Positions 6,453-63,386 of a stretch of DNA of 64,000 nt are shown piece after piece. The notes beneath the pieces were generated by a model, which made no database searches, was not told where the DNA came from, and was given only the letters and a program-made list of their open reading frames with translations. Source of the DNA: Escherichia coli phage vB_EcoM_Shy. The position numbers were made by a program, and so were the translations under genes. The stretch lies in sequence record MT833282.1; one strand, written 5' to 3'. Within the stretch, counting starts at the first letter, position 1, and every line of letters starts with the position of its first letter.

Positions 6453-7187
6453 ATGAAAGAGATGACAGAACAAGGTAAGGAGATTTTTAGTCTCTTAAAA
6501 ACCGGTAGAGGGTTTTCTAATCCCCTTATTACTGGTGCAGCAGTTCTCGGTGGAACCGTAGCTGCCTCTACATCACTTGTAAGCTCTATTAGCTCTGTAA
6601 CAGACCCTACAATAAAGGATAAACTTGTTGCTGCTGGACTTACAACAGTTCTGCTTAACAGCTTTACAACGAGTCTGACAAGCACTACATCGACTACTAA
6701 AACGCTGACAGATTATGGTCAAAAGTCTATTGATGAGTTTTCATCACGTATGCAGGTAGCAAAAGGATATTCCAATGTTATGGGTGCAGCAGGAGAACAA
6801 GTCGGTTGTACGCCATTTAGTGGTATTATGGGCGTTGCTACAGAGTATGGTCAAAAAGCTATTGATACGATTAACAGTGCATTAGACGGTGTTAATGATG
6901 TATTAAGTGACTTACAAGACGCTATTGACAAAGGTCTTGATACTATTTCTGATTTAGCTAACCAAGCTGTTAGTAAGATTAATGAAGGTATCTCGAAGAT
7001 TACAGCTTATGCAGATGAAGTTGTGCAGATGATTGAAGAAGAAGCTGCCCTTATTGCAGAGTACCTTAAAACGAATATCAATGGGTTCTTAGCAGGTATC
7101 TTACCAGACTGGTTTGATGATGCTTGTAAAACTGGTGTAATTGATACTATTGCAACACCAGAAATGAAGAACGCATTACAGAAATAA
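6453..7187 (+). CDS. hypothetical protein (Ser/Thr-rich N-terminal half)
   Basis: ORF-track ORF 6390-7187 trimmed to the first ATG after tRNA-Phe, with RBS aaagg upstream. Confidence 0.55.
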   Translation: MKEMTEQGKEIFSLLKTGRGFSNPLITGAAVLGGTVAASTSLVSSISSVTDPTIKDKLVAAGLTTVLLNSFTTSLTSTTSTTKTLTDYGQKSIDEFSSRMQVAKGYSNVMGAAGEQVGCTPFSGIMGVATEYGQKAIDTINSALDGVNDVLSDLQDAIDKGLDTISDLANQAVSKINEGISKITAYADEVVQMIEEEAALIAEYLKTNINGFLAGILPDWFDDACKTGVIDTIATPEMKNALQK

Positions 7188-7188
7188 T

Positions 7189-7281
7189 GGAAGATTAACC
7201 CTAAAAGGTAAGGGAGCAGTTTGCTAAACTGCCAGTAGCTGAGAAATCGGTGTACCAGTTCAAGTCTGGTATCTTCCTCCA
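7189..7281 (+). tRNA. tRNA-Ser(GCT), long variable arm
   Basis: 93 nt; anticodon stem-loop gcagt-ttgctaa-actgc, long variable arm, T arm accag-ttcaagt-ctggt, CCA; starts 2 nt after the preceding stop codon. Confidence 0.65.
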
Positions 7282-7285
7282 ATTT

Positions 7286-7361
7286 GAATCCGTGACAGAA
7301 ATGGCTATGTACCTGTCTGCAAAACAGGTTTATAAGGGTTCGAGTCCCTTCGGATTCTCCA
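7286..7361 (+). tRNA. tRNA-Cys(GCA)
   Basis: acceptor gaatccg/cggattc, anticodon stem-loop cctgt-ctgcaaa-acagg, T arm aaggg-ttcgagt-ccctt, CCA. Confidence 0.7.
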
Positions 7362-7398
7362 AGTTATTTTACTCTCTCTCAATTAAAATAATAATAAT

Positions 7399-7458
7399 GC
7401 CCTGCTATAAGTATTCTTCCTTTCGCTACCGAAGAGTATTTTTAGACAGGGCTTTTTT
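7399..7458 (+). terminator. rho-independent terminator closing the tRNA array
   Basis: gccctg ... cagggc stem with nested hairpin, followed by tttttt. Confidence 0.5.
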
Positions 7459-7583
7459 ACAGAGTTATACTTTATAAGAAGACTTATACAGTATGTCTCT
7501 GACGTACATTGTGGTTTCTCCTTGACGGTCTCTGTACCGTCTTTTTTAAGGAGAAACATGGTTAATTATTTGGAGAAAACATA

Positions 7584-35310: not shown

Positions 35311-35339
35311 TCATTAAAAGACCCTGTTTAAAGACCTTT

Positions 35340-35366
35340 TAAAAAGGAGCCTCCGAAGAGGCTACC
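35340..35366 (-). terminator. rho-independent terminator for minus-strand gene 35375-35815
   Basis: minus strand reads agcctc-ttcg-gaggct followed by cctttttaaaa. Confidence 0.5.
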
Positions 35367-35374
35367 CAGTCAAC

Positions 35375-35815
35375 TTAGAAAGGTTTTCTGCGTTGCTTGT
35401 TAATGTTAGCTTTCATAGCAGCTAAATGGTTTTGCTGTTCAATCAGTCGTGAACGTTCTTGATGGCTAAGTGCCATAGTGTTCACATTCTCAATCGCTTG
35501 AGTAGCTTGCTTTAAAGCACGACCAATCTTACCAGACATTTTACGTTTTGCAATAGTTGCTTGATGCTTAGGTTCGACAACACGATAACCAACACCCATT
35601 GAAGCAACCAGATAAATCTTCTCTTCTTTAAGAAGCTTCTCAATAAACTTCTCAAGTCGGTTTAGACGTGTAAGTGCATAAGCCTTCATTTCATCTTCGT
35701 ACTTAACAATGTCGCCTTGATAAGTTGGCTTCACAATACCTAAGAAGGTGTCCATCTCAGAATGTGATACAGTGTCACCGTAACTAAACTTTGCTGCTAA
35801 TGCTTTTGTATTCAT
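35375..35815 (-). CDS. hypothetical protein (cassette gene 2)
   Basis: 146-aa ORF, basic C-terminus; flanked by repeat regions. Confidence 0.55.
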   Translation of the reverse strand: MNTKALAAKFSYGDTVSHSEMDTFLGIVKPTYQGDIVKYEDEMKAYALTRLNRLEKFIEKLLKEEKIYLVASMGVGYRVVEPKHQATIAKRKMSGKIGRALKQATQAIENVNTMALSHQERSRLIEQQNHLAAMKANINKQRRKPF

Positions 35816-35817
35816 AA

Positions 35818-36423
<606 letters not shown>

Positions 36424-36480
36424 TTAGTTGATTGTTAAGTTGTTTGTAAAGAACCCTCAACAGAAGACTCTTTAGAAACT

Positions 36481-36508
36481 TGGTAGATTTTTAACGTGGC
36501 TACTACCA
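36481..36508. repeat. module B0: hairpin H2 variant
   Basis: stem tggtag/ctacca with loop atttttaacgtggcta (compare aattttaatgtagctc at 35064-35079), followed by tccacccatacc. Confidence 0.55.
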
Positions 36509-36520
36509 TCCACCCATACC

Positions 36521-43877: not shown

Positions 43878-44621
43878 ATGAGTAATATTATTGCATTTAC
43901 TGGAAAGGCACGTTCTGGAAAAGACACCTCATGTTCTATTGTTAAGAATATTTTAGAAGATGAGTATGGCTACAATGTTGCAGTAATGGCATATGCAGAC
44001 AATCTTAAGCTATCTGCATCAAAGATATTTGACCTGACTTGGAATGACCTGTACGGTGAAACTAAAGAGACTCCACAGGTCTTTGATTTATCATACTCTG
44101 AACTTATGACTAAAGTTACGGAAGCTATGGAGTTCACCTTCAGAGATGAACGTTACCATATGGACTTTAAGCTTATGTCAGAGTTAACCGGACGATTAAT
44201 CATGGAACTTAAGAAGGTTGCTAAACCGACTCTATTGACACGTCTGGGATTTAGCAAAAAGTATAAATTCTCATCAAGACAAATTCAACAGATTTGGGGC
44301 ACTGAAGTAATCCGTAAAGTCATGGGTGACAAGTTCTGGTCTAAAGACCTTGAAAAAAGGATGGTAAACTTCTTTGACGTTTGCTCACTTAGGAATCAAG
44401 AAGGTGTTGTTTTAATCAGTGACTTAAGGTTTGACTCTGAAGCTGAGTGGCTGAGTAGATTTGCACACCAAACTATTGAAGTAAAAAGAGACAATGTGGA
44501 CAAGGTTTCATCACATGTTTCAGAAAATGGAATTTCTACCAAATATGCGCGTGACATTATTCATAATAATGGTACTCTTGAAGACCTTGAAAGCAAGCTA
44601 AGAGCTATCCTGAAAATTTAA
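43878..44621 (+). CDS. deoxynucleoside monophosphate kinase (T4 gp1-like) candidate
   Basis: N-terminal P-loop FTGKARSGKDT as in phage dNMP kinases. Confidence 0.6.
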   Translation: MSNIIAFTGKARSGKDTSCSIVKNILEDEYGYNVAVMAYADNLKLSASKIFDLTWNDLYGETKETPQVFDLSYSELMTKVTEAMEFTFRDERYHMDFKLMSELTGRLIMELKKVAKPTLLTRLGFSKKYKFSSRQIQQIWGTEVIRKVMGDKFWSKDLEKRMVNFFDVCSLRNQEGVVLISDLRFDSEAEWLSRFAHQTIEVKRDNVDKVSSHVSENGISTKYARDIIHNNGTLEDLESKLRAILKI

Positions 44622-44830: not shown

Positions 44831-46808
44831 AGGTCGTAAATTGAAAGAAGCTGGTCAGTTTATTGGTCATTGTGCATGTCCACGTTGTGGTTCATCAGAT
44901 GCTGGTTCAATCTACCATCATGACGATGATTCTTATTCGATGACTTGCTTTAGCTGTAACAAAGGTTTCCCAGAGTGGGATTTTGATAAAGGACAAATCG
45001 TGAGCACTTATTCTACTGGTTCAGATAATAAAAACCGTACTTTCCGTGGAATGGATTTAGACGATGTAAAAGAAAACCTAGAAGCAATGGACTTGAAAGA
45101 CAGGAAGATTCCTGCAAAAGTTCTTGAACGCTTAGGTATCAAGGTTGACATTGACAGTGACGGCGAAATTGACGCGCATTTCTATCCAACTTACAAACGT
45201 AATGAAGATGGTAAGCTAGAGCACGTCGGTTATCGTGTACGTCACCGTTACCCAGAAGACCACCCAAAAGAACATCTACGCGGTAAGTTAAAAGACTTTT
45301 CAGGTGGTGTTGGGGACATTAAAGGTGAACTGGCAATGTTCGGTTCATGGATTGCTCCAGAAGGTGGTAACCGTCTATTCATTTGGGAAGGTGAGATGGA
45401 ATGTGCCACAGCAATCTACATGACTTCTCTGGCGATTAAAGATAAGTCTCGTCGTAAGAATTACTGTCACGTATCTGTTCCATCAGGTGCAAACATTAAG
45501 TCTATCAAAGACAACTATCAGTACATTACATCATTTGATGAGATTTACTTGTGCTTTGATAACGATGAAGCAGGTGCTAAAGCTACCAAAGAAGCTGCTG
45601 GTATCCTACCTATTGAGAAGGTTCGTTTATTCCAGTACCCAGAAGGCGTAAAAGACCTTAACGAATGGTGGACAAAGTTCTATAAAGAGAAAGACACAGT
45701 TCTGGAAGGATTTAAACAGCGTATCTACAACGCACCTCGTTACTGCCCTGCTGGTATCAAGAACTTCGCAGATGGTTTTGAGGCAATGAAGAATCGTGGT
45801 CAGATTCCATTGATTCCTTTCCCAGAATCTTTCGGAGATTTGAACAGGTTGACTTATGGTGGTTATGGTTTAGGTGAGATTACAACTCTGGCAGCACCAT
45901 CTTCAGTAGGTAAATCAGCATATACCCGTGAAATGATTTACACTGCTTGGAAGGAAACCGATTATAATATTGGTGTAATTCCTGTAGAAGATACCTATGA
46001 AGAGTTGATGGAGATGCTCTGTGCAATTCATCTAAGCAAGCAGATTTCTGAGATTCCTTATGATGAACGTGATTGGGATGAATTGAAGGAAGCACACGCA
46101 GAACTATCTAAAGGTCGTCGTATCCATATCGTTGACCATCAAGGGGCAATTGACCAAGATAACCTACTGGAATTTGTTGACTATCTTGTTAACAGCTTAG
46201 ATTGCAAGATTATCATTCTTGACCCTATCACGTTAGCTCTGTCACGTTCAGATACGGATGAAGAGGAAGTTTTGTCTGAGCTATTGCGTCGTTGCAAACG
46301 CTACCAGTATGCACAGGTAAACGTATGTCACGTTCGTAAGAGTGCAGGTGGTCAGAAAGCTAACTCTGAAGGTGGAGATATCTCTGAAGAGGATATTAAG
46401 GGTTCTGGTGCATACTTCCAGATTTCCATGAACAACATTCTGTTAATGCGTAACAAGGTTGACCCAGACCCAGTTAAGAAAAACTTGACAAAAATCAAGT
46501 TAACTAAGTGTCGTCGTCATGGTAAGTCAACAGGTATTGCTGGTCATACTTGGTACAATCCAGATACAGGACGTCTTATCAAAGCTTCTGGATGTGGTGT
46601 TGATATTGATGGTGCAGCAGAAAATATTCGTCAACAGTTTGGTATTGGTGAAGCTGAAGACCATTATGATGACTCTTTGCCTCATTATGAGGATGAAGTG
46701 TTTGACCGTGAGACTGGTGAAGTCTATACTGAAGAACAGCGTCAAAGCTCAACGATTCCACCTGTATTAAGTGAGGATGCAGATGACTGCCCGTTTGAAA
46801 CTGAGTGA
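44817..46808 (+). CDS. DNA primase/helicase (T7 gp4-like)
   Basis: N-terminal zinc ribbon CPRCGSSD...CFSCNKG, central primase region, C-terminal helicase Walker A AAPSSVGKSA. Confidence 0.85.
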   Translation: MLMSKGRKLKEAGQFIGHCACPRCGSSDAGSIYHHDDDSYSMTCFSCNKGFPEWDFDKGQIVSTYSTGSDNKNRTFRGMDLDDVKENLEAMDLKDRKIPAKVLERLGIKVDIDSDGEIDAHFYPTYKRNEDGKLEHVGYRVRHRYPEDHPKEHLRGKLKDFSGGVGDIKGELAMFGSWIAPEGGNRLFIWEGEMECATAIYMTSLAIKDKSRRKNYCHVSVPSGANIKSIKDNYQYITSFDEIYLCFDNDEAGAKATKEAAGILPIEKVRLFQYPEGVKDLNEWWTKFYKEKDTVLEGFKQRIYNAPRYCPAGIKNFADGFEAMKNRGQIPLIPFPESFGDLNRLTYGGYGLGEITTLAAPSSVGKSAYTREMIYTAWKETDYNIGVIPVEDTYEELMEMLCAIHLSKQISEIPYDERDWDELKEAHAELSKGRRIHIVDHQGAIDQDNLLEFVDYLVNSLDCKIIILDPITLALSRSDTDEEEVLSELLRRCKRYQYAQVNVCHVRKSAGGQKANSEGGDISEEDIKGSGAYFQISMNNILLMRNKVDPDPVKKNLTKIKLTKCRRHGKSTGIAGHTWYNPDTGRLIKASGCGVDIDGAAENIRQQFGIGEAEDHYDDSLPHYEDEVFDRETGEVYTEEQRQSSTIPPVLSEDADDCPFETE

Positions 46809-47064
46809 TAGTTATAAAAGAGAGGGGTTCATACCCTTCTTTGAAGAAAAAAGTTTAAATGAATTTCAGGAAGAGTGTTTGACAAAGATTGATAGGTTCT
46901 ATAGAATGCTCCTCATGAAATGCAATGGGGAGGTTGAGATAAAAGAAGATTTCTACCAAAGCACGATTACAGTCATCGTTGCACTGCCTCAGCATAATAT
47001 CAGTTGGCTGTTTATAATTAAAGAAAATGTGTTTGAATATCAAGTATATCGGAGAATATCATGA
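46771..47064 (+). CDS. hypothetical protein
   Basis: 97-aa ORF overlapping helicase 3' end. Confidence 0.4.
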   Translation: MRMQMTARLKLSDSYKREGFIPFFEEKSLNEFQEECLTKIDRFYRMLLMKCNGEVEIKEDFYQSTITVIVALPQHNISWLFIIKENVFEYQVYRRIS

Positions 47065-47210
47065 AACACTCTAAAGCATTTGAAAAAGTTTTTGGGGATT
47101 CCTTAAAAGCCACTGCTGGAAAACCAGCAAAATACTATGAAGAGAAGCGTGTAAGAACTGGAAAAACTGCACGTAAAGCAGCTTCTAAAGATAAGCACAA
47201 CTTCCAGTAA
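47061..47210 (+). CDS. hypothetical small basic protein (49 aa, below ORF-track cutoff)
   Basis: ATG 47061 preceded by RBS ggaga; hand-translated MKHSKAFEKVFGDSLKATAGKPAKYYEEKRVRTGKTARKAASKDKHNFQ. Confidence 0.4.
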   Translation: MKHSKAFEKVFGDSLKATAGKPAKYYEEKRVRTGKTARKAASKDKHNFQ

Positions 47211-47217
47211 TTAATGT

Positions 47218-47246
47218 TTGACAATAGAGTATCAACAAATTAGAAT
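47218..47246 (+). promoter_or_regulatory. sigma70-type promoter (TTGACA-17-TAGAAT) overlapping an inverted repeat
   Basis: -35 at 47218-47223, -10 at 47241-47246; agagtatc/ggtactct inverted repeat spans the spacer. Confidence 0.45.
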
Positions 47247-47282
47247 TGGTACTCTTCATAAATTGAGATAGAGGTTTAAATA

Positions 47283-48140
47283 ATGTCTAAAGTTGTTAAA
47301 ATGAAAGCTCCGGTAGAGAAGTACAACGGTACTGAACGTCAAACTCTGCGTTACCTTCTGAAAGATGTTTGGTTTTATTACCTGAACACTTCACCACGTC
47401 CGGGAAAAGGTAAATCCATTGATAAGAAATTCCCAGGCAAAGACTGTAACTACAGTGTTTCAATTCTGGCAGAAGATGGTAACAAGCTGTTTAAAGAGTT
47501 CACTAAGTCTAAGAAAAACCCAGAAGGTTGGGATAAAGTTACTACTGAAGCAGTTGATGCAGATGACTTTGAAGAGAAGTTTGGTTGCAAACCACCATTT
47601 GAAGCAGACACTTACTACATCTTGAAAGTAAGTCGTGCAGCAGCTTATAAGGATGGTGCTGTGTGGACAGCTAAACAGTCATTCCCTGTAATGCTGATTG
47701 AAGAAGTAAATGGTAAGCGTGTAGCTGTTAAACAGCCGATGAAGAAAATCAAAGCTCAAGCATCTGACAAACATGAAGATGACAAGAACTATGATGTAAT
47801 TCATCCAGATATCGCAGTCGGTAACGGTTCTTTTGGTAGTGTGATTCTTTCTACTCACTTCTACACTTTTGAGAACAATGTTCTGACAAAACCTATTCAG
47901 GAACAGTTTATCATTGATACACTTGTACCTTACACTGGTGGTAATGGTGCTAATGGCGAACCTGAACTGGATGAAGACGAACTGGCTATGCTTGGCCTTG
48001 ATGGTGTTGAAGATAACGGTGAAATCACTGAAGAAGATGCAACAGACCACAAACCTTCGAATGATTCTGATGATGGTGACGATGAAGACTTACCAGACCC
48101 AGATGACGAAGAAGATGAAGACTTCGATACAGAAGACTAA
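47283..48140 (+). CDS. single-stranded DNA-binding protein (T7 gp2.5-like) candidate
   Basis: 285 aa with strongly acidic C-terminal tail DDGDDEDLPDPDDEEDEDFDTED; between helicase and exonuclease. Confidence 0.55.
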   Translation: MSKVVKMKAPVEKYNGTERQTLRYLLKDVWFYYLNTSPRPGKGKSIDKKFPGKDCNYSVSILAEDGNKLFKEFTKSKKNPEGWDKVTTEAVDADDFEEKFGCKPPFEADTYYILKVSRAAAYKDGAVWTAKQSFPVMLIEEVNGKRVAVKQPMKKIKAQASDKHEDDKNYDVIHPDIAVGNGSFGSVILSTHFYTFENNVLTKPIQEQFIIDTLVPYTGGNGANGEPELDEDELAMLGLDGVEDNGEITEEDATDHKPSNDSDDGDDEDLPDPDDEEDEDFDTED

Positions 48141-48158
48141 TCTCTAAAAGTTACTTTA

Positions 48159-48187
48159 AAGCCCTGTACTTAGTATGGGGCTTTTTC
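48159..48187 (+). terminator. rho-independent terminator
   Basis: aagccc ... ggggct stem then ttttt. Confidence 0.45.
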
Positions 48188-48202
48188 ATATGGAGAGTCA
48201 CA

Positions 48203-49243
48203 ATGGAGAAGTATACGCTAACAAAACTTCCCGATTCAGTTACACATGTCTTTATTGACTCTGATAGTATTGCCTATAAGGGTGCTTGTGTAGTTGAGAA
48301 AGCAAAATATAAATACGTCAATAAACTCACAGCAGAAGAATCTGAACCATTTGATAATGCAAAAGATGCCGCAAGATGGTTAGCAGACCAGAGAATCCTT
48401 GTAGAAGAGCTTGGCCTAACATTTGATGAAGATGAATGGGAAAGACAGACTTGGAAAGAAGCTAAGAGTGAAAAAGAAGCTATAATGGCGACTCAGCAGG
48501 TTCTTCAGGAATGGCTTAAGGTTGTTGGTAAAGAAAGAACTTGGGTAGGTTACTTAACAGAGAAGGGTGTACATAAACATAAAGACGTTAAAGGTCTTGA
48601 GCACCAATATCAAGGTAACCGTAAAGATGCCGTCACACCAACACACTTAGTCGCTTGTCGTGAATATCTTTTATCCAGACCAGAGTTCAAACTCTTAAAG
48701 GGTGGATTCGAAGCTGATTCAATCGTAATTGCTAAAGCTGAAAAGATGGGTAAGAAAGCTGCTCTTATGAGTATTGACAAAGACCTTCGACAAGCTGAAG
48801 GGACTTATTGTATTGATATGACTTATGAAAAGTCACCACTAATTTTTATTGCTGATAATAATGTTGGTGATATCTGGGATTGTCCTATCAAATCAAAACC
48901 AAAAGCTGCAAAAACAGTTGGTGTAGGTTTTAAATTCTTGTGTTATCAGGCTGTTGCTGGAGATAATGCAGACAACTACTTCGGCCTTAAAGGTGCTGGC
49001 AAAGTAGCTGTGATGAATGCTTTAGATGGTAAAGAGACATACAAAGAGTGTCTTGATGCTATCTATGAACTCTATGCTAAAAAAGACTCTTATACCTATG
49101 TGTCATGGGATGGACAGACTGTCACAAAGACACCGTTAGAGTTAATGGAACAGCATTTCTGGATAGCATATCAAGAGAGAAATCCAAAAGATAATTTCTC
49201 TTTTAAGAAATATAATTGGGAGCCGTGTATGAATGAAGATTAA
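48203..49243 (+). CDS. 5'-3' exonuclease / flap endonuclease candidate
   Basis: 346 aa; N-terminal acidic cluster VFIDSDSIAYKG; position after SSB as in T7 gene 6. Confidence 0.5.
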   Translation: MEKYTLTKLPDSVTHVFIDSDSIAYKGACVVEKAKYKYVNKLTAEESEPFDNAKDAARWLADQRILVEELGLTFDEDEWERQTWKEAKSEKEAIMATQQVLQEWLKVVGKERTWVGYLTEKGVHKHKDVKGLEHQYQGNRKDAVTPTHLVACREYLLSRPEFKLLKGGFEADSIVIAKAEKMGKKAALMSIDKDLRQAEGTYCIDMTYEKSPLIFIADNNVGDIWDCPIKSKPKAAKTVGVGFKFLCYQAVAGDNADNYFGLKGAGKVAVMNALDGKETYKECLDAIYELYAKKDSYTYVSWDGQTVTKTPLELMEQHFWIAYQERNPKDNFSFKKYNWEPCMNED

Positions 49244-49730
49244 AGGATTTGGCAATTGTCCTACCTATGGTCATTGGGTATCTTTATGTGGGGAAGTTGA
49301 CCCCACTAAACATTTTGGTTTTGTCTATTTAGTACACTGTAAGAAGACCGGACAATATTATATCGGAAAGAAACAGCTTAATAGTGTGACCAAAAGAAAA
49401 GTTGCTGGCAAGACTCGGAAGAAAGTAGTCACTAAGGAGAGTGATTGGATGACTTATGAGACTTCTTCTGAGTATATTAAAAAAGATATTGAGAGCTTTG
49501 GAAAAGAATTTTTTGACTTTTACATTATCCAAACCTACTACACGAAAGGTGGTCTAGTTTATGGTGAAGCAAACCTCCAACATAAATTCGATGTAATGAC
49601 AAAAAGGATTGACTCTAAGCTCAGACTCTTCTACAATGCCAATATTGCAGCAATTAAGTTTATCACTAAAGAAACTTATGAAGATGCTGAAAAAAGAATC
49701 CATAAGGTAATGAAAGCAAATTGTGCTTGA
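49233..49730 (+). CDS. GIY-YIG-like nuclease domain protein (candidate)
   Basis: GFVYLVHCKKTGQYYIGKK matches the GIY-x9/10-YIG spacing. Confidence 0.45.
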   Translation: MKIKGFGNCPTYGHWVSLCGEVDPTKHFGFVYLVHCKKTGQYYIGKKQLNSVTKRKVAGKTRKKVVTKESDWMTYETSSEYIKKDIESFGKEFFDFYIIQTYYTKGGLVYGEANLQHKFDVMTKRIDSKLRLFYNANIAAIKFITKETYEDAEKRIHKVMKANCA

Positions 49731-49736
49731 TAACTA

Positions 49737-49982
49737 TTGAGAGAGAATAAAATGTTTAACAAAAGTAAAGCTGTGAGTCATGTAGCAAAGGTTGACAGCA
49801 AGATTGAAGAACTTGAGCGCATTCTTGCAAATGCCAGAGAGTCAATAATTAAAGAGGTTGAAGCTGTTGAATCTCAAATGCAGCACCTAATGCTTAAACG
49901 TCAAGAGTTACGTGAGCATCTGGAATATATTGAAACACGAGAGCTAAAAGTTAACAGATTTTTAAGGAGTCCGAATGTTTAA
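49737..49982 (+). CDS. hypothetical coiled-coil protein
   Basis: 81-aa ORF. Confidence 0.45.
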   Translation: MRENKMFNKSKAVSHVAKVDSKIEELERILANARESIIKEVEAVESQMQHLMLKRQELREHLEYIETRELKVNRFLRSPNV

Positions 49983-50730
49983 CTCAAGAGAATCAGTAAA
50001 AAACTGGAATCTTCGTTGCGGAAACACCCAAAAGCAACCTTACAGTGATGAGTATTGGGAATCTTTGAAATCCCAATCTCTGTGTATGCTTGAAGAAGCA
50101 AAAGAGCTTGTAAAAGCAATTGAAGAGAAAGACCCCATTGAGACACTGGATGCTCAGGCAGATTTGCAATACGTTCTTGACGGTCTGATTTATCTGTCAC
50201 AACATGACCACAATGGCGCTATGGAAGCTGTTTGTCATAATAATGACCTGAAGTATACAGACGACTATGAAGAAGCTTTAAAACGTCTTGCAGATATTGA
50301 GAAGCGTACTGGTCAAGAGTGTATTATCAGAATGTCAGTAGTTGATGGTAAAGAGTGGTATGCGATTGTCCGTGCAGCCGATGGGAAGATTATGAAGCAA
50401 TCAAATCTCCCTAAAGTACAGCTTGGTGAATACATTGTAGAACTTGAAAGCCAAGAACTTTTTGTGGTAGTATCTGAGACATGCGTTATCTGCAAAGGTA
50501 TTGTAGGTAGCTTAAAGGATTTGGGTGTAGATGGTTTTGTAGAAGTTAATCCAATTACCTCTAAAGCAGATAAAGATTTCTGTAAAGAGAATGGACTATG
50601 GATTGCAGATATTGTCTACTACGATGGTGAGCAGTTCCATGTAACCTCATACCCGAAACTGAATTATGATGCTAATAACCTGAAGTGCTGGTTAAAAGGG
50701 GTTGGTTATAATGGATTCACAGAACATTAA
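49975..50730 (+). CDS. MazG-like nucleotide pyrophosphohydrolase domain protein (candidate)
   Basis: N-terminal EEAKELVKAIEEKD ... DAQADLQYVLDGL resembles the all-alpha NTP-PPase EExxE...D motif. Confidence 0.45.
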   Translation: MFNSRESVKNWNLRCGNTQKQPYSDEYWESLKSQSLCMLEEAKELVKAIEEKDPIETLDAQADLQYVLDGLIYLSQHDHNGAMEAVCHNNDLKYTDDYEEALKRLADIEKRTGQECIIRMSVVDGKEWYAIVRAADGKIMKQSNLPKVQLGEYIVELESQELFVVVSETCVICKGIVGSLKDLGVDGFVEVNPITSKADKDFCKENGLWIADIVYYDGEQFHVTSYPKLNYDANNLKCWLKGVGYNGFTEH

Positions 50731-55521: not shown

Positions 55522-57666
55522 ATGAACAAAGTACAGATTATTAAAAAGAACGGCTCACTTGAAGAACCTGATATCAAAAAAGTTTTAGCAGCAGTAACTA
55601 AGTCAGCTAACAGGGTTGGGTATAAAGAACTCCCACCAGATGTTACCCAAGCTCTTGAGTCAGCATTTATGAGGATTCTGGTAAAGTCCACTAAGCAGAA
55701 TAATTTGCTCATCTCGGTAAACGATATTCACAGTATTGTTGAAGGTGCTTTGGCAGAAGTCAATCACGAGATTTATGAGTCTTACTCAACATACAGAAAT
55801 TACCGTAAAGAGGTTGCTCAAAATTGGGATGAGCTTTACCAAAAGACTAAAGACACACTCTTCTTAGGTGACCGTGAAAACGCTAACTTTGACAGTAGTT
55901 TAATTTCTACAAAAGGCTCAATTATTCGTGGTTACCTGACTAAAGAAATCTTTAAACAGTACCATTTAACACCAGAGGAACTTGAAGCCATTGAAAAAGG
56001 GTTTATCTACATCCATGACTTAAGAGACCTAATTTTTGGTGGGATTAACTGTTGCCTGTTTGACATTGGTAAAGTACTGAAAGGTGGCTTTGAAATGTCT
56101 GGCATCGAATACTGTGAACCGAAGTCTGTACTGTCAGCCTTACAGGTTATCGGTGATGTAGTTCTTTCAGCAACTGCACAGCAATTTGGTGGCTTTACTT
56201 TAGCAGAGATTGATAAGGTGCTTGTACCGTATGCTAAGAAGTCTCTACGCTATCATGCTGAGAAAGCAGCATCTTACGGTATTCCTAAAGAACATTACCA
56301 TAATTATGTCATGGAGCAGCTACAGATTGAATTAACTCAAGGTTTCCAGTCACTAGAGATGAAGCTAAATACTGTACCTTGTAGCCGTGGTGATTTCGCA
56401 TTCACAACTTTAACATTTGGTTTACTTGACTCAGACATGTCTAATGAAGACAACCGACTACAATACATGATTGCAAACACCATTCTTGATGTTCGCATGA
56501 ATGGACAAGGTAAGAGTAAGAAGCCTGTTGTATTCCCTAAACTGGTTTATATCCATGACCAGAAGAGACACGATGAGAATATCTGTCAAGGTCAACTTTA
56601 CAGTAAAGCTATTGAGTGTTGCTCTAAAGCAATGTATCCAGATTTCTTAAGCGTATCTGGTCATGGTGCTGTAGCAGAGGCTTTTGAGCGTTCTGGCAAG
56701 GTAATTTCACCGATGGGTTGCAGAGCTTTCTTGTCCCCATATCTTAACGAGAATGGAGAAGAGTTCTACGTTAGTCGTGCTAATATTGGTGCTGTATCTT
56801 TGAACTTACCTATGATTTACCAGTATTCTAAAGAGAGTGGTTTAGATTTCTGGAAAGAGCTTGATAAGTACCTAGAGATGATTCGCAGCTTCCACAAGAA
56901 ACGCTATGAAATGATTGCTAATATGCCAGCAAGTTCTAACCCTCTTGCATTCACACAAGGTGGTCTGTACAAAGGGACTAAGAAACCTACTGACAAGGTT
57001 GGTTGGAATATCGTGAAGTCCTTCACAGCTTCTTTTGGGGTTACTGCACTTGATGAGTTATCTGTTCTTGCTGAGGGTAAACGACTTCATGAAGTTGGAA
57101 GCTGTAGTTTTGCATACGATGTTCTGGCATACATTAACATGAAAACTGAGGAGTTTAAAAATGAAGATGGCTTCTTATATGCCGTCTATGGTACTCCAGC
57201 AGAATCACTTTGTGGAACTCAGCTAAAACAGTTCAGAGATATGTTTGGCGTTATCAAAGGTGTTTCTGATAAGGAATACTTTACAAACAGTTTCCATATG
57301 AATGTTGCAGCAGACATCTCACCATTTGAGAAGCAGGACTTAGAAGAGCCATTCTTCCATATCTGTAGAGGCGGCAGAATCCAGTATGTGAGGGTGGCTA
57401 ACCCAGAAAACTTACCAGCACTTAAAAGTTGTATTACAAGAGGTATGTTGAAGGGTTTTTATCAGGGACTTAACTTTGACTTAGCAATCTGTGAACATTG
57501 TGGTAACAGACCAAAGGCTGATGTTGAAGAATGTGAGGTTTGCCATTCACATGACATCTCTGTGATTAACAGAGTGTGTGGGTATCTTGGGTGGACTAAG
57601 ATTAAAGGTGAATCCCGAATGAACGATGCAAAAATTGCTGAGATTCGTGATAGAGTCTCTATGTAA
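55522..57666 (+). CDS. nrdD: anaerobic ribonucleoside-triphosphate reductase (class III)
   Basis: 714 aa; C-terminal glycyl-radical motif RVCGYLG preceded by Cys cluster CEHCG...CEVC. Confidence 0.85.
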   Translation: MNKVQIIKKNGSLEEPDIKKVLAAVTKSANRVGYKELPPDVTQALESAFMRILVKSTKQNNLLISVNDIHSIVEGALAEVNHEIYESYSTYRNYRKEVAQNWDELYQKTKDTLFLGDRENANFDSSLISTKGSIIRGYLTKEIFKQYHLTPEELEAIEKGFIYIHDLRDLIFGGINCCLFDIGKVLKGGFEMSGIEYCEPKSVLSALQVIGDVVLSATAQQFGGFTLAEIDKVLVPYAKKSLRYHAEKAASYGIPKEHYHNYVMEQLQIELTQGFQSLEMKLNTVPCSRGDFAFTTLTFGLLDSDMSNEDNRLQYMIANTILDVRMNGQGKSKKPVVFPKLVYIHDQKRHDENICQGQLYSKAIECCSKAMYPDFLSVSGHGAVAEAFERSGKVISPMGCRAFLSPYLNENGEEFYVSRANIGAVSLNLPMIYQYSKESGLDFWKELDKYLEMIRSFHKKRYEMIANMPASSNPLAFTQGGLYKGTKKPTDKVGWNIVKSFTASFGVTALDELSVLAEGKRLHEVGSCSFAYDVLAYINMKTEEFKNEDGFLYAVYGTPAESLCGTQLKQFRDMFGVIKGVSDKEYFTNSFHMNVAADISPFEKQDLEEPFFHICRGGRIQYVRVANPENLPALKSCITRGMLKGFYQGLNFDLAICEHCGNRPKADVEECEVCHSHDISVINRVCGYLGWTKIKGESRMNDAKIAEIRDRVSM

Positions 57667-59470: not shown

Positions 59471-59791
59471 ATGAGCAAAGTTTATAACACTCGTAAATTA
59501 CAGATTTTCGTACTGTGCCAGTTTATGGCTAAAGAGTATAACTACTACTATTGTGGTACAGGATTCATTAGTGATAATGACGGCTCATATCTACCATTCA
59601 AAGAGGCTGTAAAACTCTTCAATGAAGAGAAAAGCTCTAAGAAAGATATTGAAAAGGTTAAGCTAACCTACAGCAAGAAAGATAAGAAGATTATCTGCCT
59701 AGATAACTTTGTGAAAGTTACTGGAGAAGCAAAAGAGTTTATGGATGAGAGTGAAATCTCATTCACAAGCATCTTGAAAGTAGCTCAGTAA
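59471..59791 (+). CDS. hypothetical protein
   Basis: 106-aa ORF. Confidence 0.5.
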   Translation: MSKVYNTRKLQIFVLCQFMAKEYNYYYCGTGFISDNDGSYLPFKEAVKLFNEEKSSKKDIEKVKLTYSKKDKKIICLDNFVKVTGEAKEFMDESEISFTSILKVAQ

Positions 59792-59842
59792 ACAGATACT
59801 ATAAGGGGACTGTAAAGGTTCCCTTTTTATTTTGGAGATAAT

Positions 59843-60358
59843 ATGTATCTGTCAAATCTGAAACGTTCGGTTGCAATGTCAGTTCTAAGACTCAGCTTTG
59901 AGGAACGTCAAGAGTTCATTGACACCCACCAATATGACCCTTCTAACTCTAATCACATGATTCTCTGGAATCGTGATAGTACTCGTGAAAGAGCACTATT
60001 CCGCTATTACCCACATTACACCATAGATAACCTGTATGGATGTTTTGTTGTAAAGAACACCATTACAGTACTCAATAAGCTTTGTAGATACACAGGTAAC
60101 CAGTCTTTCACATTAGGCCACCACAAACCCGTTACAAAAGGTGGTGAGCATCACTGTGCAAACTGGTTTATTCAGACTAAAGCTGATAATCAGAAGCAAG
60201 GAGACAGCCTTCTAAGCACCCCTAAGATGACCTATGAAGAGCAAGAGAAATATATCAAAAATAATATGCCAGGTGTGCTTGACAACAACTATACAGATTT
60301 GGCAATATCTCTCCTGTTGAAGTTCGAGACAGTTTATAGGGCAACTTACAATGGCTAA
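59843..60358 (+). CDS. hypothetical protein, possible HNH-like nuclease
   Basis: 171 aa; His-rich segment LGHHKPVTKGGEHHCANW; weak. Confidence 0.35.
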   Translation: MYLSNLKRSVAMSVLRLSFEERQEFIDTHQYDPSNSNHMILWNRDSTRERALFRYYPHYTIDNLYGCFVVKNTITVLNKLCRYTGNQSFTLGHHKPVTKGGEHHCANWFIQTKADNQKQGDSLLSTPKMTYEEQEKYIKNNMPGVLDNNYTDLAISLLLKFETVYRATYNG

Positions 60359-60629
60359 AGAGAAGTGGGAAATTTTACCATTAGTGAGTGAAGGTGGTAA
60401 CGGTTGTGAGATGTACATGATACGAGGTCATGTTCCAGAACCAATTGCACTTGAGATGGTAAATAATTTTACAGATGGTTCTTACAAAGACTTGGGAGAG
60501 CCAACTGTAAAGCATCAATGGGTTAAACCTGTACCAGACAGCACAGGCAACTGTAGTGTACTCTACCACGTTGTAGACCCCGTGAAATGCAAATCTGCAA
60601 TGGCAGTAACAAACGTAACTTTTGATTGA
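60351..60629 (+). CDS. hypothetical protein
   Basis: 92-aa ORF. Confidence 0.5.
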   Translation: MAKEKWEILPLVSEGGNGCEMYMIRGHVPEPIALEMVNNFTDGSYKDLGEPTVKHQWVKPVPDSTGNCSVLYHVVDPVKCKSAMAVTNVTFD

Positions 60630-61522
60630 GAGAGAAAACTATGAAGACATCTATTCGTGTTATAATTCATTCACCGACAAAAGGGTCTCATGAAGAAGAG
60701 TTTAACATTATCCAGTTCCCTTCTGGTGAGATTGGTGGACACTTTTCACAAGAGCTTGTCGATTTTACTGCTTATGCAGCATCATCCATTAACAATGTGA
60801 TTATGATTGTAAAAGGCTACGACAAGGACACATTGTTTGCTGTGGCACTTGCTAAAGAGGCAATTGATGATTTGATTCCTCATGATTATGCCTTAAAGAC
60901 TGTCATCTTTTACTACTTACCAAATGCACGATATGACCGTCACATGTTTAAAGGTGATGCAGCAGCTTTGAAGGTTTTTGCTAAACAGGTTAATGCAATG
61001 GGTTTTGGCGCGGTCTGTGCAGTTGACCCTCACAGTTATGTGCCAGATAACCTGTTTAACTGCTTCCAAAGTATTCCTCAAAATGAAATTGCAGTCCACT
61101 ATGCAAATGACCCACTGGTTGATTACTTAGTAGCCCCAGATGCAGGTGCTTCTAAGAAGATTGCAGAAACTGCTAAAGAGGTGGATAAACCACACATCAC
61201 AATGTCTAAAGTACGTAACCTTAAGACTGGTGAAATTACTGGTATGCGAATCCTTGATGATGTTGATTTGACCGATAAAACTGTTATGATTCTCGACGAT
61301 ATCTGTGATGGTGGTCGAACCTTCATAGAAGCAGCTAAACATCTTCGTGAAGCAGGTGCAAAACGTGTGGAACTCTATGTAACACATGGCATCTTCTCTA
61401 AAGGTGTTGAAAACCTTCTTGACAATGGTATTGACCACATCTACACTACAAACTCTTTAGGGGAAGCTAAAGACCGTGGTTTAACACATTATGGTCAAGT
61501 TACTGTAGCAAACCTTGATTAA
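60626..61522 (+). CDS. Prs-like phosphoribosyltransferase (ribose-phosphate pyrophosphokinase family)
   Basis: PRPP-binding-type motifs VAPDAGASKK and ILDDICDGGRTF; immediately upstream of NAMPT-like gene. Confidence 0.75.
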   Translation: MREKTMKTSIRVIIHSPTKGSHEEEFNIIQFPSGEIGGHFSQELVDFTAYAASSINNVIMIVKGYDKDTLFAVALAKEAIDDLIPHDYALKTVIFYYLPNARYDRHMFKGDAAALKVFAKQVNAMGFGAVCAVDPHSYVPDNLFNCFQSIPQNEIAVHYANDPLVDYLVAPDAGASKKIAETAKEVDKPHITMSKVRNLKTGEITGMRILDDVDLTDKTVMILDDICDGGRTFIEAAKHLREAGAKRVELYVTHGIFSKGVENLLDNGIDHIYTTNSLGEAKDRGLTHYGQVTVANLD

Positions 61523-61531
61523 AACTTTATA

Positions 61532-61554
61532 GGGGGCTTTTAAGCCCCATTTTG
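61532..61554 (+). terminator. weak terminator-like hairpin
   Basis: ggggc-ttttaa-gcccc then attttg. Confidence 0.35.
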
Positions 61555-61568
61555 AGAGAGATTAAAAG

Positions 61569-63350
61569 ATGACTAAATCACTTTATGCAGTACCAGCAAG
61601 TTTAAACGCAGATGCTTACAAATCTGGTCACATTTACCAGTATCCTAGTGCAACAGAATACTTGATGTTCAACCTGACACCACGTAGTGATAAATGGTTT
61701 AACAGTCCTTTAGCAATTGACGGTGTAGTGGCTTTTGGTATTCAACGTTTTGTTAAAGACTACTTAATAGACCACTGGAACGCCACCTTCTTCGAACGTG
61801 ACAAAGAAGAAGCAATTGACGAAATCTTAGAAGTCATGAATGGTGTTCTGGGTAAAGATGCTATTGGTCGTGAACATTGGGAAGCACTTCACGACTTAGG
61901 TTATCTACCAGTTGAAGTATACGCTGTAGAAGAAGGCACAGTTGTTCCTATGCGTGTACCAATGATTGTCTTCCAGAACACTGTTTCAGGTTTCCATTGG
62001 GTAGCGGGGTATCTGGAAGATGCTTTCTCTGCTGAGATTTGGAAGGCTTGTACCATTGCAACTATTGCATTGCACTACAAACGTATCTGTAAGAAGTGGT
62101 CTGACCTTACTTGTGATAACGACTTACATTTGCCTTATCAGTGCCATGACTTTGCTATGCGTGGTATGTCCGGCTTTACCGATGACGCATTTAACGCTGT
62201 AGGACACTTAACCAGCTTTAAAGGAACTGATAGTTTCCCTGCTGTATATACAGCTAAACGCATCTATGGACAGTCCTACCCAATCTCTGATATTGGTAGC
62301 TCTGTACCAGCCACTGAACACTCTGTAATGTGTGCAAACATTGCTTGGGAAGGTGGTAATGAGTTGATTGAAGAAGAAAGACGCTTTAAAGGTGAGTTAC
62401 AAACCTTCCGTCGTTTCTTAACAGAAACTTACCCAACTGGTATTGCAAGTGTTGTTTCAGACACTTATAATTTCTGGAGAACTGTATCAGAAATCTTACC
62501 AGCGCTTCGTAAAGAGATTATGGAACGTGATGGCAAACTGGTCATTCGTCCTGACTCTGGCGACCCTGTACATATTGTCACAGGTTATAAAGCAATCCAC
62601 TTAGAGTGTGCTAAAAAGGCTTATTACGAACACCTAAGCAAGCTGGAAGCCAGCGACACAATGCTGAATGCTGTTCTGAACATGAAGCTTGAAAACATCA
62701 ACTATGGTATTGCTGGATGGCTACTGTCAGAAGGCTACGAAATGGTTGTTGACAGAGAAGACTTTGAAGCTGCTGATACAGTGCTGTTGAAAAATGCTTA
62801 TATGGTTGGTTCTGCAAACGTTGTCACACGCCCTGTAGCAGAGATTGATGGGGCTATTAAGACCCTGTATAACATCTTTGGAGGGACCATCAACTCTAAA
62901 GGTTTTAAGGTACTGGATGAGCACATTGGACTTATCTATGGTGACTCTATCACGTTGGAACGTGCAAACGAAATCCTGAAGCGTTTGTATGAAATGGGTT
63001 TTGCAAGCTCTAACGTAGTGTTTGGTGTAGGTTCTTACACTTACCAGTACATGACTCGTGACACCTTTGCATTTGCTGTTAAAGCAACTCTTGCAAGCAT
63101 TGGTGGTAAAGAGATTATGCTTGCAAAAGACCCTAAAACAGATAGTGGTGTTAAGAAGTCTGCTTTTGGTGGTGTAGCACCTATGTGGGATGGTGATAAG
63201 CTGAAAGCTGTAGATGGCTATGGATTCCAGAGCTTTGAAGATGTACTTGAGCATCCAGCTTGTGCTTTACGTTTAGTCTTTAGTGAATCTGAGCAGTTTG
63301 GCTACACAACTCTTGGTGATATTCGAAATAATATTGACAAGCAACTCTAA
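61569..63350 (+). CDS. nadV: nicotinamide phosphoribosyltransferase-like enzyme
   Basis: 593 aa; N-terminal NADAYKSGH motif typical of the NAMPT family. Confidence 0.8.
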   Translation: MTKSLYAVPASLNADAYKSGHIYQYPSATEYLMFNLTPRSDKWFNSPLAIDGVVAFGIQRFVKDYLIDHWNATFFERDKEEAIDEILEVMNGVLGKDAIGREHWEALHDLGYLPVEVYAVEEGTVVPMRVPMIVFQNTVSGFHWVAGYLEDAFSAEIWKACTIATIALHYKRICKKWSDLTCDNDLHLPYQCHDFAMRGMSGFTDDAFNAVGHLTSFKGTDSFPAVYTAKRIYGQSYPISDIGSSVPATEHSVMCANIAWEGGNELIEEERRFKGELQTFRRFLTETYPTGIASVVSDTYNFWRTVSEILPALRKEIMERDGKLVIRPDSGDPVHIVTGYKAIHLECAKKAYYEHLSKLEASDTMLNAVLNMKLENINYGIAGWLLSEGYEMVVDREDFEAADTVLLKNAYMVGSANVVTRPVAEIDGAIKTLYNIFGGTINSKGFKVLDEHIGLIYGDSITLERANEILKRLYEMGFASSNVVFGVGSYTYQYMTRDTFAFAVKATLASIGGKEIMLAKDPKTDSGVKKSAFGGVAPMWDGDKLKAVDGYGFQSFEDVLEHPACALRLVFSESEQFGYTTLGDIRNNIDKQL

Positions 63351-63364
63351 AAGTATATGATAAG

Positions 63365-63386
63365 AGGCTCCTACGGGAGCCTTTTT
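63365..63386 (+). terminator. rho-independent terminator
   Basis: aggctcc-tacg-ggagcct then tttt. Confidence 0.6.

Follow-up and report, generated by a model that had tools for sequence, protein, structure and literature searches.

The window, meaning the whole 64,000 nucleotide stretch of Escherichia coli phage vB_EcoM_Shy DNA (record MT833282.1) analysed here, derives from a Felixounavirus (Felix O1-like) and is collinear with the genome of Escherichia phage JohannRWettstein (Bas63, record MZ501086) at 91 - 96% DNA identity. Two co-directional genes lie on its + strand with 46 bp between them, a Prs-family gene directly adjoining a NAMPT-family gene, which is the NARP1 arrangement. The first, adps (60641..61522), would encode a Prs-like ADP-ribose pyrophosphokinase of 293 aa and the second, namat (61569..63350), a NAMPT-like nicotinamide ADP-ribose transferase of 593 aa, the assignments being based on matches to Prs-family and NAMPT-family profiles and on orthology to Bas63 genes 79 and 80 respectively. 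An initial annotation had placed an adjacent pair of these families at 60626 - 63350 and the pair is real, both members being + strand open reading frames with E-values far beyond chance. The end of that span is correct, but at its start 60626 marks no more than a first TTG in the open frame, and translation more probably begins with the ATG at 60641, because the resulting 293 aa product aligns without gaps with annotated Bas63 gene 79 and because a GAGAGAG motif precedes the ATG of both adps and namat.

The genes flanking the pair are the same as in Bas63, with the pair positioned after nrdD/nrdG and accompanied by the same small ORFs, but bas63_0081, which follows namat in Bas63, is absent from the window. 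The complete adps-namat pair was found in 236 phage records. There is no third gene between adps and namat, the 46 bp spacer containing a stem-loop (61533..61548, + strand; GGGGGC-UUUU-AAGCCCC then AUUUU) with a fold energy of -14.1 kcal/mol (z = -2.2), the stem of which is kept in Bas63 whilst the loop differs. This hairpin was rejected as a terminator, since the required T-run is absent and it was not called by a terminator scan. A terminator-like hairpin of 10 pairs followed by a T-run is found at 63362..63385 (+ strand), 12 nt past the namat stop codon. PADLOC matches at the locus (ShosT, PsyrT) were weak and generic, involving only the PRTase domain, and were judged to be irrelevant.

An obvious consideration in assigning a function to the pair is whether the names offered by the databases can be taken at face value. 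The Pfam and NCBIfam names for the two proteins are ribose-phosphate diphosphokinase and nicotinate/nicotinamide phosphoribosyltransferase, and GenBank labels all of their relatives in the same way, which would favour a conventional salvage pair in which PRPP would come from a true Prs and NMN from a NadV/Nampt, with NadR or NadD of the host completing NAD+. The Adps sequence does not sit comfortably with this proposal. It matches TIGR01251 (116 bits; 116.4 against a cut-off of 113), PF00156 and PF14572, but TIGR01251 is a broad subfamily model and the only Prs model to be passed, as every canonical Prs equivalog cut-off in NCBIfam was missed (42 - 102 bits against cut-offs of 296 - 536, with the best score of 102 falling against a cut-off of 296). 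Adps is 36% identical to the Adps of Bacillus phage SPbetaL1 (SpβL1) and 29% identical to E. coli Prs, the sole canonical Prs compared, the corresponding scores being 103 and 61 bits. None of its best 120 database relatives was named as, or was as long as, a canonical Prs, and the best relatives listed were 185 - 310 aa in length and came exclusively from phages or paired bacterial loci. The alignment with Bas63 gene 79 extends over the full length without gaps and 226 of the 293 residues are identical (77%).

The catalytic Lys190 of Adps (codon 61208..61210, + strand) aligns with K162 of SpβL1 Adps, with K194 of E. coli Prs and, through SpβL1 K162, with its counterpart K197 in B. subtilis Prs, and is invariant across 90 diverse homologues; a K162A substitution in SpβL1 Adps has been reported to abolish NARP1 activity. 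ARxDR, DPHS and the loop with DD219-220 are retained as well, and of 61 positions conserved in the clade 59 are kept. Pyrophosphoryl transfer, and the attack of nicotinamide on C1 of an activated ribose, are the chemistry of the Prs and NAMPT families, and the window pair shares both this catalytic chemistry and its folds with E. coli PrsA and Haemophilus ducreyi HdNadV. PrsA differs, however, in being longer (315 aa against 293 aa), in having DLHA where Adps has DPHS and VR where Adps has KK at positions 172-173, and in the sequence of the phosphate (ribose-5-phosphate) loop, which is DTGGT in PrsA and DGGRT in Adps. The literature offers no sequence signature by which Adps could be told from Prs, and the assignment rests on probable clade membership, as judged from score comparisons, model cut-offs and the list of database neighbours, together with adjacency to namat and orthology. 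These support the identification of the 60641..61522 product as a predicted Adps rather than a canonical Prs.

In the case of Namat the family assignment is clear from NF006629 (466 bits, E=9e-140), PF04095 and PF18127, and the protein is 98% identical to the product of Bas63 gene 80 (579 of 593 residues, full length, no gaps). Its best sequence match in the PDB is the SpβL1 Namat (9W5W/9W5X, E=3e-128), and an AF2 model (pLDDT 93.4) gave 9W5X as its best Foldseek match with a TM of 0.95. The active-site comparison proposed in the initial annotation showed the catalytic core to be kept in full, like Adps K190, with D15, Y17, F195, D221, H251, R327 and D329 all in invariant columns and corresponding to D13, Y15, F189, D215, the catalytic His, R306 and D308 of the SpβL1 enzyme. 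One homologue of 843 aa (P0064) that had been considered as a possible Adps-Namat fusion proved to be a Namat interrupted by an intein.

It is the substrate selectivity clamp that distinguishes a Namat from its NMN-forming relatives. In the published signature the clamp loop either has Arg at position 3 or has Lys/Tyr with a stacking residue directly after it, and the Bas63 loop has been described as being of the Lys type, in which the residue after the Lys stacks on the adenine. The loop in the window protein (residues 38-51, PRSDKWFNSPLAID; 61680..61721, + strand) is identical to that of Bas63 and reads S40-D41-K42-W43, whereas SpβL1 Namat uses Arg40 in place of Lys42-Trp43. The clamp helix is published as GSXΦXΦXΦTRD with aromatics at motif positions 3 and 7, and is matched by GSYTYQYMTRD at residues 488-498 (63030..63062, + strand). 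Aromatics are lacking from this helix in the controls, namely HdNadV (9KE8; GAQTYQRNTRD), in which Gln and Arg take the place of the two adenine-stacking aromatics of Namat, Xcc Nampt (GGALLQKVDRD) and KP15 NadV (GGGLLQEVTRD), where the non-aromatic Nampt-type GGGLLQEV stands against Tyr and Tyr in Namat. Judged from these motifs, the window Namat carries a predicted adenine clamp that is absent from the true NadV and Nampt controls. Clustering with NadV, which the initial annotation had named as evidence against an NAD+ reconstitution role, was not seen, the Namat-specific clamp occupying the place of NadV/Nampt sequence.

NARP1 was defined genetically in Bas63, where Adps is the product of gene 79 and Namat that of gene 80 (Osterman et al., bioRxiv 10.1101/2024.02.11.579819). 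Bas63 lacking genes 79-80 becomes sensitive to SIR2-HerA, and a separate study found that plating of Bas63 Δg79 or Δg80 dropped by 1e4-1e6. ADPR-pyrophosphate (ADPR-PP) was detected only when wild-type Bas63 infected defence-carrying cells, and the rescue required neither host pncC nor nadR. The in vitro activities leading from ADPR to ADPR-PP to NAD+ have been shown for the SpβL1, DyoEdafos and P. foliorum enzymes only, and the chemistry has to be taken from the SpβL1 homologues because the Bas63 Adps did not purify. In a published survey Namat adjoined 97% of Adps-clade genes.

The initial annotation had suggested that the pair might constitute a two-enzyme phage pathway for NAD+ reconstitution, and this is supported by the orthology of both proteins (77% and 98% identity, in the same synteny and genus) to the products of Bas63 genes 79 and 80. 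The window pair also shares genome position, gene order and spacing with bas63_0079 and bas63_0080. It is very probable (roughly 0.94) that adps and namat form a minimal two-gene NARP1 operon of a Felixounavirus, and as such it belongs to an already characterised pathway and is not a new candidate. Orthology, gene arrangement and the conservation of catalytic and specificity residues form the basis for this reading in the present analysis, whilst the chemistry and the anti-defence phenotype would carry over from the literature on the Bas63 orthologues or SpβL1 homologues. It is inferred that the window proteins, and especially Adps with its different N-terminal domain allele, act as do their Bas63 and SpβL1 counterparts; identity to the biochemically characterised SpβL1 pair is only 36% for Adps and 43% for Namat. 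In the proposed sequence of events a host defence NADase of the SIR2, TIR or SEFIR type would split NAD+ into ADP-ribose and nicotinamide, and Adps would use ATP to pyrophosphorylate the ADP-ribose to ADPR-PP, which Namat would join to nicotinamide to give NAD+ directly, with neither an NMN intermediate nor an NMN adenylyltransferase. The rebuilt NAD+ would then permit phage replication despite NAD+-depleting abortive-infection systems.

The conventional PRPP/NMN salvage pair, which the initial annotation had offered as its alternative, does have one biochemical observation in its favour, in that Namat keeps PRPP-dependent NMN synthesis in vitro, and so some conventional salvage activity of Namat is possible. 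As an account of the pair, however, salvage is very unlikely. Apart from the missed Prs cut-offs and the presence of a clamp that true NadV lacks, the Prs substrate gave no product with SpβL1 Adps, and Namat produced only NAD+ when it was given both substrates. Furthermore, the Bas63 counter-defence survives in a ΔpncC ΔnadR host and the diagnostic metabolite in Bas63 infection is ADPR-PP rather than an excess of NMN.

A second pathway that counters the same NAD+-depleting defences and also employs a NAMPT-family enzyme is NARP2, of the Vibrio phage KVP40 type, in which Nampt/NadV is combined with the bifunctional NMNAT-Nudix protein NatV. NARP2 starts from PRPP and proceeds via NMN, with an NMNAT being required, and on this model the Prs-like enzyme would supply PRPP and a NatV-like phage NMN adenylyltransferase would be encoded elsewhere in the genome. 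A distant NMNAT is conceivable given that the window represents 64 of ~87 kb. Nevertheless, no Pfam match to CTP_transf_like (NMNAT) or Nudix was obtained in 29 ORFs of the 64-kb window, 9 of them neighbours of the pair and the other 20 non-structural and of >=100 aa; the separate NMN adenylyltransferase that the initial annotation had regarded as counter-evidence was thus not found among them. Nor is an NMNAT annotated in the full genome of the collinear Bas63, and the published survey met no phage with NARP1 and NARP2 together. The NARP2-type KP15 NadV is only 27% identical to the window Namat, which has the adenine clamp in place of the GGGLLQ helix. A NARP2-type arrangement is consequently given the lowest probability of the readings considered and is close to negligible.

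Amongst the forms of NARP1 already described, two share the Adps and Namat core but possess an extra gene, which in NARP1-AP encodes Adpp, a Macro-domain ADPR-1''-phosphatase, and in the other form RyDEP, a RyR-domain cADPR glycosidase. The window pair has no third gene beside or between its members, and neither the flanking ORFs nor the others scanned gave a Pfam match to Macro or RyR domains. The SpβL1 system (Namat crystal structures 9W5X and 9W5W; NAR 2026, PMC12774641) has the same two-gene layout, catalytic residues and clamp-helix class, but its Namat lacks insertions of ~86 aa and ~15 aa that are present in the window protein. It is predicted that the phage resists NAD+ depletion of the SIR2-HerA, type I Thoeris, DSR1/2 and SEFIR types but, following published logic, aRES-type cleavage of NAD+ should still be effective against it because Adpp is absent. 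Felix O1-like phages are used in biocontrol of Salmonella and E. coli and in diagnostics. A reading made from the sequence by itself had correctly picked out a recently discovered counter-defence pathway, the genes of which are still wrongly labelled Prs and NadV in databases, and what is new beyond the known NARP1 is confined to observations on the Adps allele and the Namat insertion.

The N-terminal domain of Adps (residues 1-175; 60641..61165, + strand) represents an allele distinct from that of Bas63. Protein identity between the two is 65% in this domain and 95% in residues 176-293, and DNA identity falls from 90 - 100% to 59 - 70% exactly at the adps start codon, recovering by ~61200. 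Two discrete allele classes of the domain occur in Felixounavirus-like phages and both are widespread (154 and 94 phage records). The sharpness of the domain-bounded drop and the wide occurrence of each class raise the question of whether the pair, whilst being NARP1, has an Adps functionally altered relative to that of Bas63, whether in its substrate range, its regulation or its oligomerisation, or through evading a host factor that recognises Adps. Such an alteration is considered unlikely. Both alleles contain every motif that is conserved throughout the Adps clade, and clade-wide the N-domain has evolved more quickly than the C-domain. Furthermore, since DNA divergence about equals protein divergence, the domain has the look of old divergence plus recombination rather than of recent adaptive change.

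The larger insertion in Namat is a lineage-specific subdomain of ~86 aa (residues ~341-426; 62589..62846, + strand) which sits just after the catalytic RPDSGDP strand. It is shared with Bas63 Namat, as are the clamp loop and clamp helix, and is absent from SpβL1 Namat, HdNadV and human NAMPT. The insertion is confidently folded in the model and fast-evolving, and no recognisable fold relatives were found for it. Neither the insertion nor the differing Adps N-domain allele is described in the NARP1 literature examined. That the N-domain replacement and the insertion have functional meaning, as an arms-race hotspot within the known pathway, is an unlikely proposition; if they do, they could reflect adaptation to host factors sensing or inhibiting NARP1, or escape from such factors, an altered substrate range, or the docking of Adps so that labile ADPR-PP could be passed on.

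Upstream of the pair lie two further + strand genes, orf171 (59843-60358, 96% identical to bas63_0077) and orf92 (60351-60629, 97% identical to bas63_0078), which are to be regarded as context and outside NARP1 proper. A hairpin scan identified a terminator-like hairpin upstream of orf171 (59803-59825) and, because both genes sit between this hairpin and adps, they are probably co-transcribed with adps-namat. Bas63 gp77 has been reported to counter retron Ec67. The orthologue of gp77 is encoded in the same apparent transcription unit as adps and namat, an association that is without description in the NARP1 literature examined.

The two genes that the initial annotation proposed as an NAD+ reconstitution pair are confirmed at 60626-61522 and 61569-63350, both in + orientation. 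The first product is indeed Prs-like, matching PF00156, PF14572 and TIGR01251 (116.4 bits, barely over the model cut-off of 113), and the second belongs to the NAMPT family (NF006629, 466 bits, E=9e-140; also PF04095 and PF18127). The extent of the first gene requires adjustment: the frame is open from the TTG at 60626, but the start is most likely the ATG at 60641, because the resulting 293-aa product is colinear with the annotated orthologue of Escherichia phage JohannRWettstein (Bas63) and because GAGAGAG precedes both this ATG and that of the second gene. The preferred reading, NAD+ reconstitution, is borne out, the genes being orthologues of Bas63 genes 79-80. The pair is the already published NAD+ reconstitution pathway 1 (NARP1), in which Adps converts ADP-ribose to ADPR-pyrophosphate (ADPR-PP) and Namat forms NAD+ from ADPR-PP and nicotinamide, and the phage belongs to the genus in which NARP1 was discovered.

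NARP1 was defined through deletion of Bas63 genes 79-80 (Osterman et al., bioRxiv 10.1101/2024.02.11.579819). The same study reported that the deletion cost the phage both its resistance to SIR2-HerA and its ability to restore NAD+, that ADPR-PP was a new metabolite seen only with wild-type Bas63 in defence-carrying cells, and that rescue was independent of host pncC and nadR. Since the Bas63 protein failed to purify, homologues from Bacillus phage SPbetaL1 (SpβL1) were used in vitro: Adps made ADPR-PP from ADP-ribose and ATP and yielded no product from the Prs substrate, Namat supplied with both PRPP and ADPR-PP gave NAD+ as sole product, and activity was abolished by Adps K162A or Namat R306G. 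NARP1 and NARP2, the route via NMN, co-occurred in no phage of the published survey. An independent screen, PhageMaP, found that Bas63 lacking g79 or g80 plated 1e4-1e6 lower on Sir2-HerA cells, the effects being smaller for retron Ec86 and for hhe (bioRxiv 10.1101/2024.10.10.617714).

The alternative is a conventional PRPP/NMN salvage pair, and here the affinities of the first protein are informative. It falls below all NCBIfam Prs equivalog cut-offs (e.g. 102 bits vs 296), and its identity to SpβL1 Adps is 36% (103 bits) against 29% (61 bits) to E. coli Prs. Among its best 120 database relatives there is no canonical Prs by name or length; those listed are of 185-310 aa, and their sources are phages or else bacterial loci of taxa in which Namat homologues also occur. 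K190 is invariant when 90 diverse members of the clade are aligned and corresponds to K162 of SpβL1 and K194 of E. coli; the protein matches 59 of the 61 clade-conserved positions, at many of which E. coli Prs differs (DLHA for DPHS, VR for KK172-173 and, in the phosphate-binding loop, DTGGT for DGGRT). Adps has no published sequence signature; all of these indications agree, making a place with the Adps clade rather than with canonical Prs probable. Homologues of both proteins are also carried on Enterobacteriaceae chromosomes (Cronobacter, Klebsiella, Superficieibacter, Kosakonia and relatives; P0068-P0120, P0190-P0240), with a Namat of ~496 aa (~46% identity) and an Adps of ~285 aa (~40-48%), which would fit the reported bacterial NARP1 loci. 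One PHROG profile, phrog_12872 (547 positions), is matched by Adps at positions 38-224 and by Namat at 360-534, suggesting that some phages may encode fused Adps-Namat proteins. An 843-aa metagenomic Namat homologue (P0064) has its catalytic RPD|SG motif split by an intein (…VVRPD-CYDDK…VVISGN-SGTPED…).

Namat is distinguished from Nampt by a two-part adenine-binding selectivity clamp (2026 structures 9W5X and 9W5W; PMC12774641), one part of which is a variable loop supplying either Arg or else a Lys/Tyr with a stacking residue directly after it. The loop of the second protein, S-D-K42-W43, is identical to that of Bas63 Namat, the Lys-type example of that work. At the clamp-helix position it reads GSYTYQYMTRD, whereas the corresponding sequence is GAQTYQRNTRD in H. 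ducreyi NadV (9KE8), GGALLQKVDRD in Xanthomonas Nampt and GGGLLQEVTRD in NadV of the T4-like phage KP15; the two clamp-helix aromatics are present in none of the three true Nampt/NadV controls. The catalytic core is wholly conserved (D15, Y17, F195, D221, H251, R327, D329), and a confident AlphaFold2 model (pLDDT 93.4, pTM 0.91) has Namat 9W5X as its top solved-structure match (TM 0.95 over the target), with HdNadV and mammalian NAMPT ranking behind. A separate NMN adenylyltransferase, whose presence the initial annotation counted against its preferred reading, was not found, nor was a Nudix, Macro-domain Adpp (NARP1-AP) or RyR-domain RyDEP protein, in Pfam scans of 29 ORFs (nine neighbouring, and 20 non-structural of at least 100 aa) within the window, which spans 64 of the genome's ~87 kb. 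The collinear Bas63 genome annotation has no NMNAT, Nudix, Macro or RyR entry.

The residual interest lies in replacement of the Adps allele and in a Namat insertion, both of which go beyond the published description of NARP1. Over its entire length the window is collinear with Bas63 (MZ501086), a member of Felixounavirus, sharing 91-96% DNA identity with it in a circularly permuted arrangement, 1-7583 corresponding to Bas63 79621-87100 and 7584-64000 to 1-56454. The locus is 97% identical to that of Salmonella phage SLAM_phiST56, and the whole pair occurs in 236 phage records, nearly all Felix O1-like (Escherichia, Salmonella, Shigella and Citrobacter hosts). The pair has the same flanking genes in both phages, nrdD, nrdG and then small ORFs; nrdD is intact in the window (55522-57666, 714 aa), whereas in Bas63 (46630-49516) an intron with a homing endonuclease interrupts it, and ~740 bp of Bas63 are missing from this region. 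Also missing are bas63_0072 and bas63_0081, and ~1.2 kb at 35335-36514 has no Bas63 counterpart, holding two - strand ORFs, 35375-35815 and 35818-36420, neither of which matches Pfam. ARAGORN places 26 + strand tRNA genes at 2281-7361, corresponding to the Bas63 tRNA region. In the replication module, 49233-49730 encodes a SegE-like GIY-YIG homing endonuclease (PF19835, E=9e-28), and the product of 49975-50730 has a MazG/PRA-PH-like pyrophosphohydrolase domain (PF01503, E=6e-6).

Against this background Namat is 98% identical to Bas63 gene 80 (579/593), while Adps is 77% identical to gene 79 (226/293, gap-free). Precisely from the adps start codon, DNA identity drops from 90-100% to 59-70%, to rise again ~500 bp downstream, so that the N-terminal domain (residues 1-175; 60641-61165) is only 65% identical in protein and the C-terminal domain 95%. 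Two adps allele classes are widespread in Felixounavirus-like phages, with 154 records at least 90% identical to the window type and 94 at 60-80%, the class to which the Bas63 allele belongs; Namat, by contrast, is 95-99% identical in 203 records. As catalytic motifs are kept in both alleles, the window type probably retains function, the genetically tested allele being of the Bas63 type.

Felixounavirus Namat carries an insertion of ~86 aa (residues 341-426) directly after the catalytic RPDSGDP strand and a second of ~15 aa (residues 258-272), neither of which is present in SpβL1 Namat, HdNadV or NAMPT. The larger is predicted with high confidence, both alone and in context, to form an α/β subdomain, for which neither PDB nor BFVD gave a significant fold relative. 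Among Ounavirinae-like phages it is conserved in length, but its sequence changes far more rapidly than that of the core (e.g. 45% vs 80-85% identity); the cited NARP1/Namat papers do not discuss it.

Upstream of adps are two small ORFs, orf171 (59843-60358, 96% identical to bas63_0077) and orf92 (60351-60629, 97% identical to bas63_0078). The block of orf171, orf92, adps and namat is enclosed by two terminator-like hairpins (59803-59825 and 63362-63385), an arrangement suggestive of a single transcription unit. Sigma-70-like promoter matches directly precede both hairpins (TTGAAA-17-TACTAT in the promoter-hairpin stretch 59774-59825; TTGACA-16-TATGAT, 11/12, in that at 63334-63385), and a short GC hairpin between adps and namat (61533-61548) shares its stem, but not its loop, with Bas63. 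Bas63 gp77, named as a GIY-YIG protein, is reported to counter retron Ec67 (PhageMaP, bioRxiv 10.1101/2024.10.10.617714); the Pfam scan found no GIY-YIG domain in orf171 or orf92, and PHROGs gave a weak HNH-like match alone (phrog_2214, E=1.6e-4). Elsewhere, 43878-44621 encodes a deoxynucleotide monophosphate kinase of the T5 type (PF21448, E=4e-23). A phage dNMP kinase is described as the trigger of Kongming, an NAD+-depleting system that can be countered by NARP1 (NAR 2026, PMC12774641), and by analogy this kinase, Kongming and NARP1 may be linked in the present phage.
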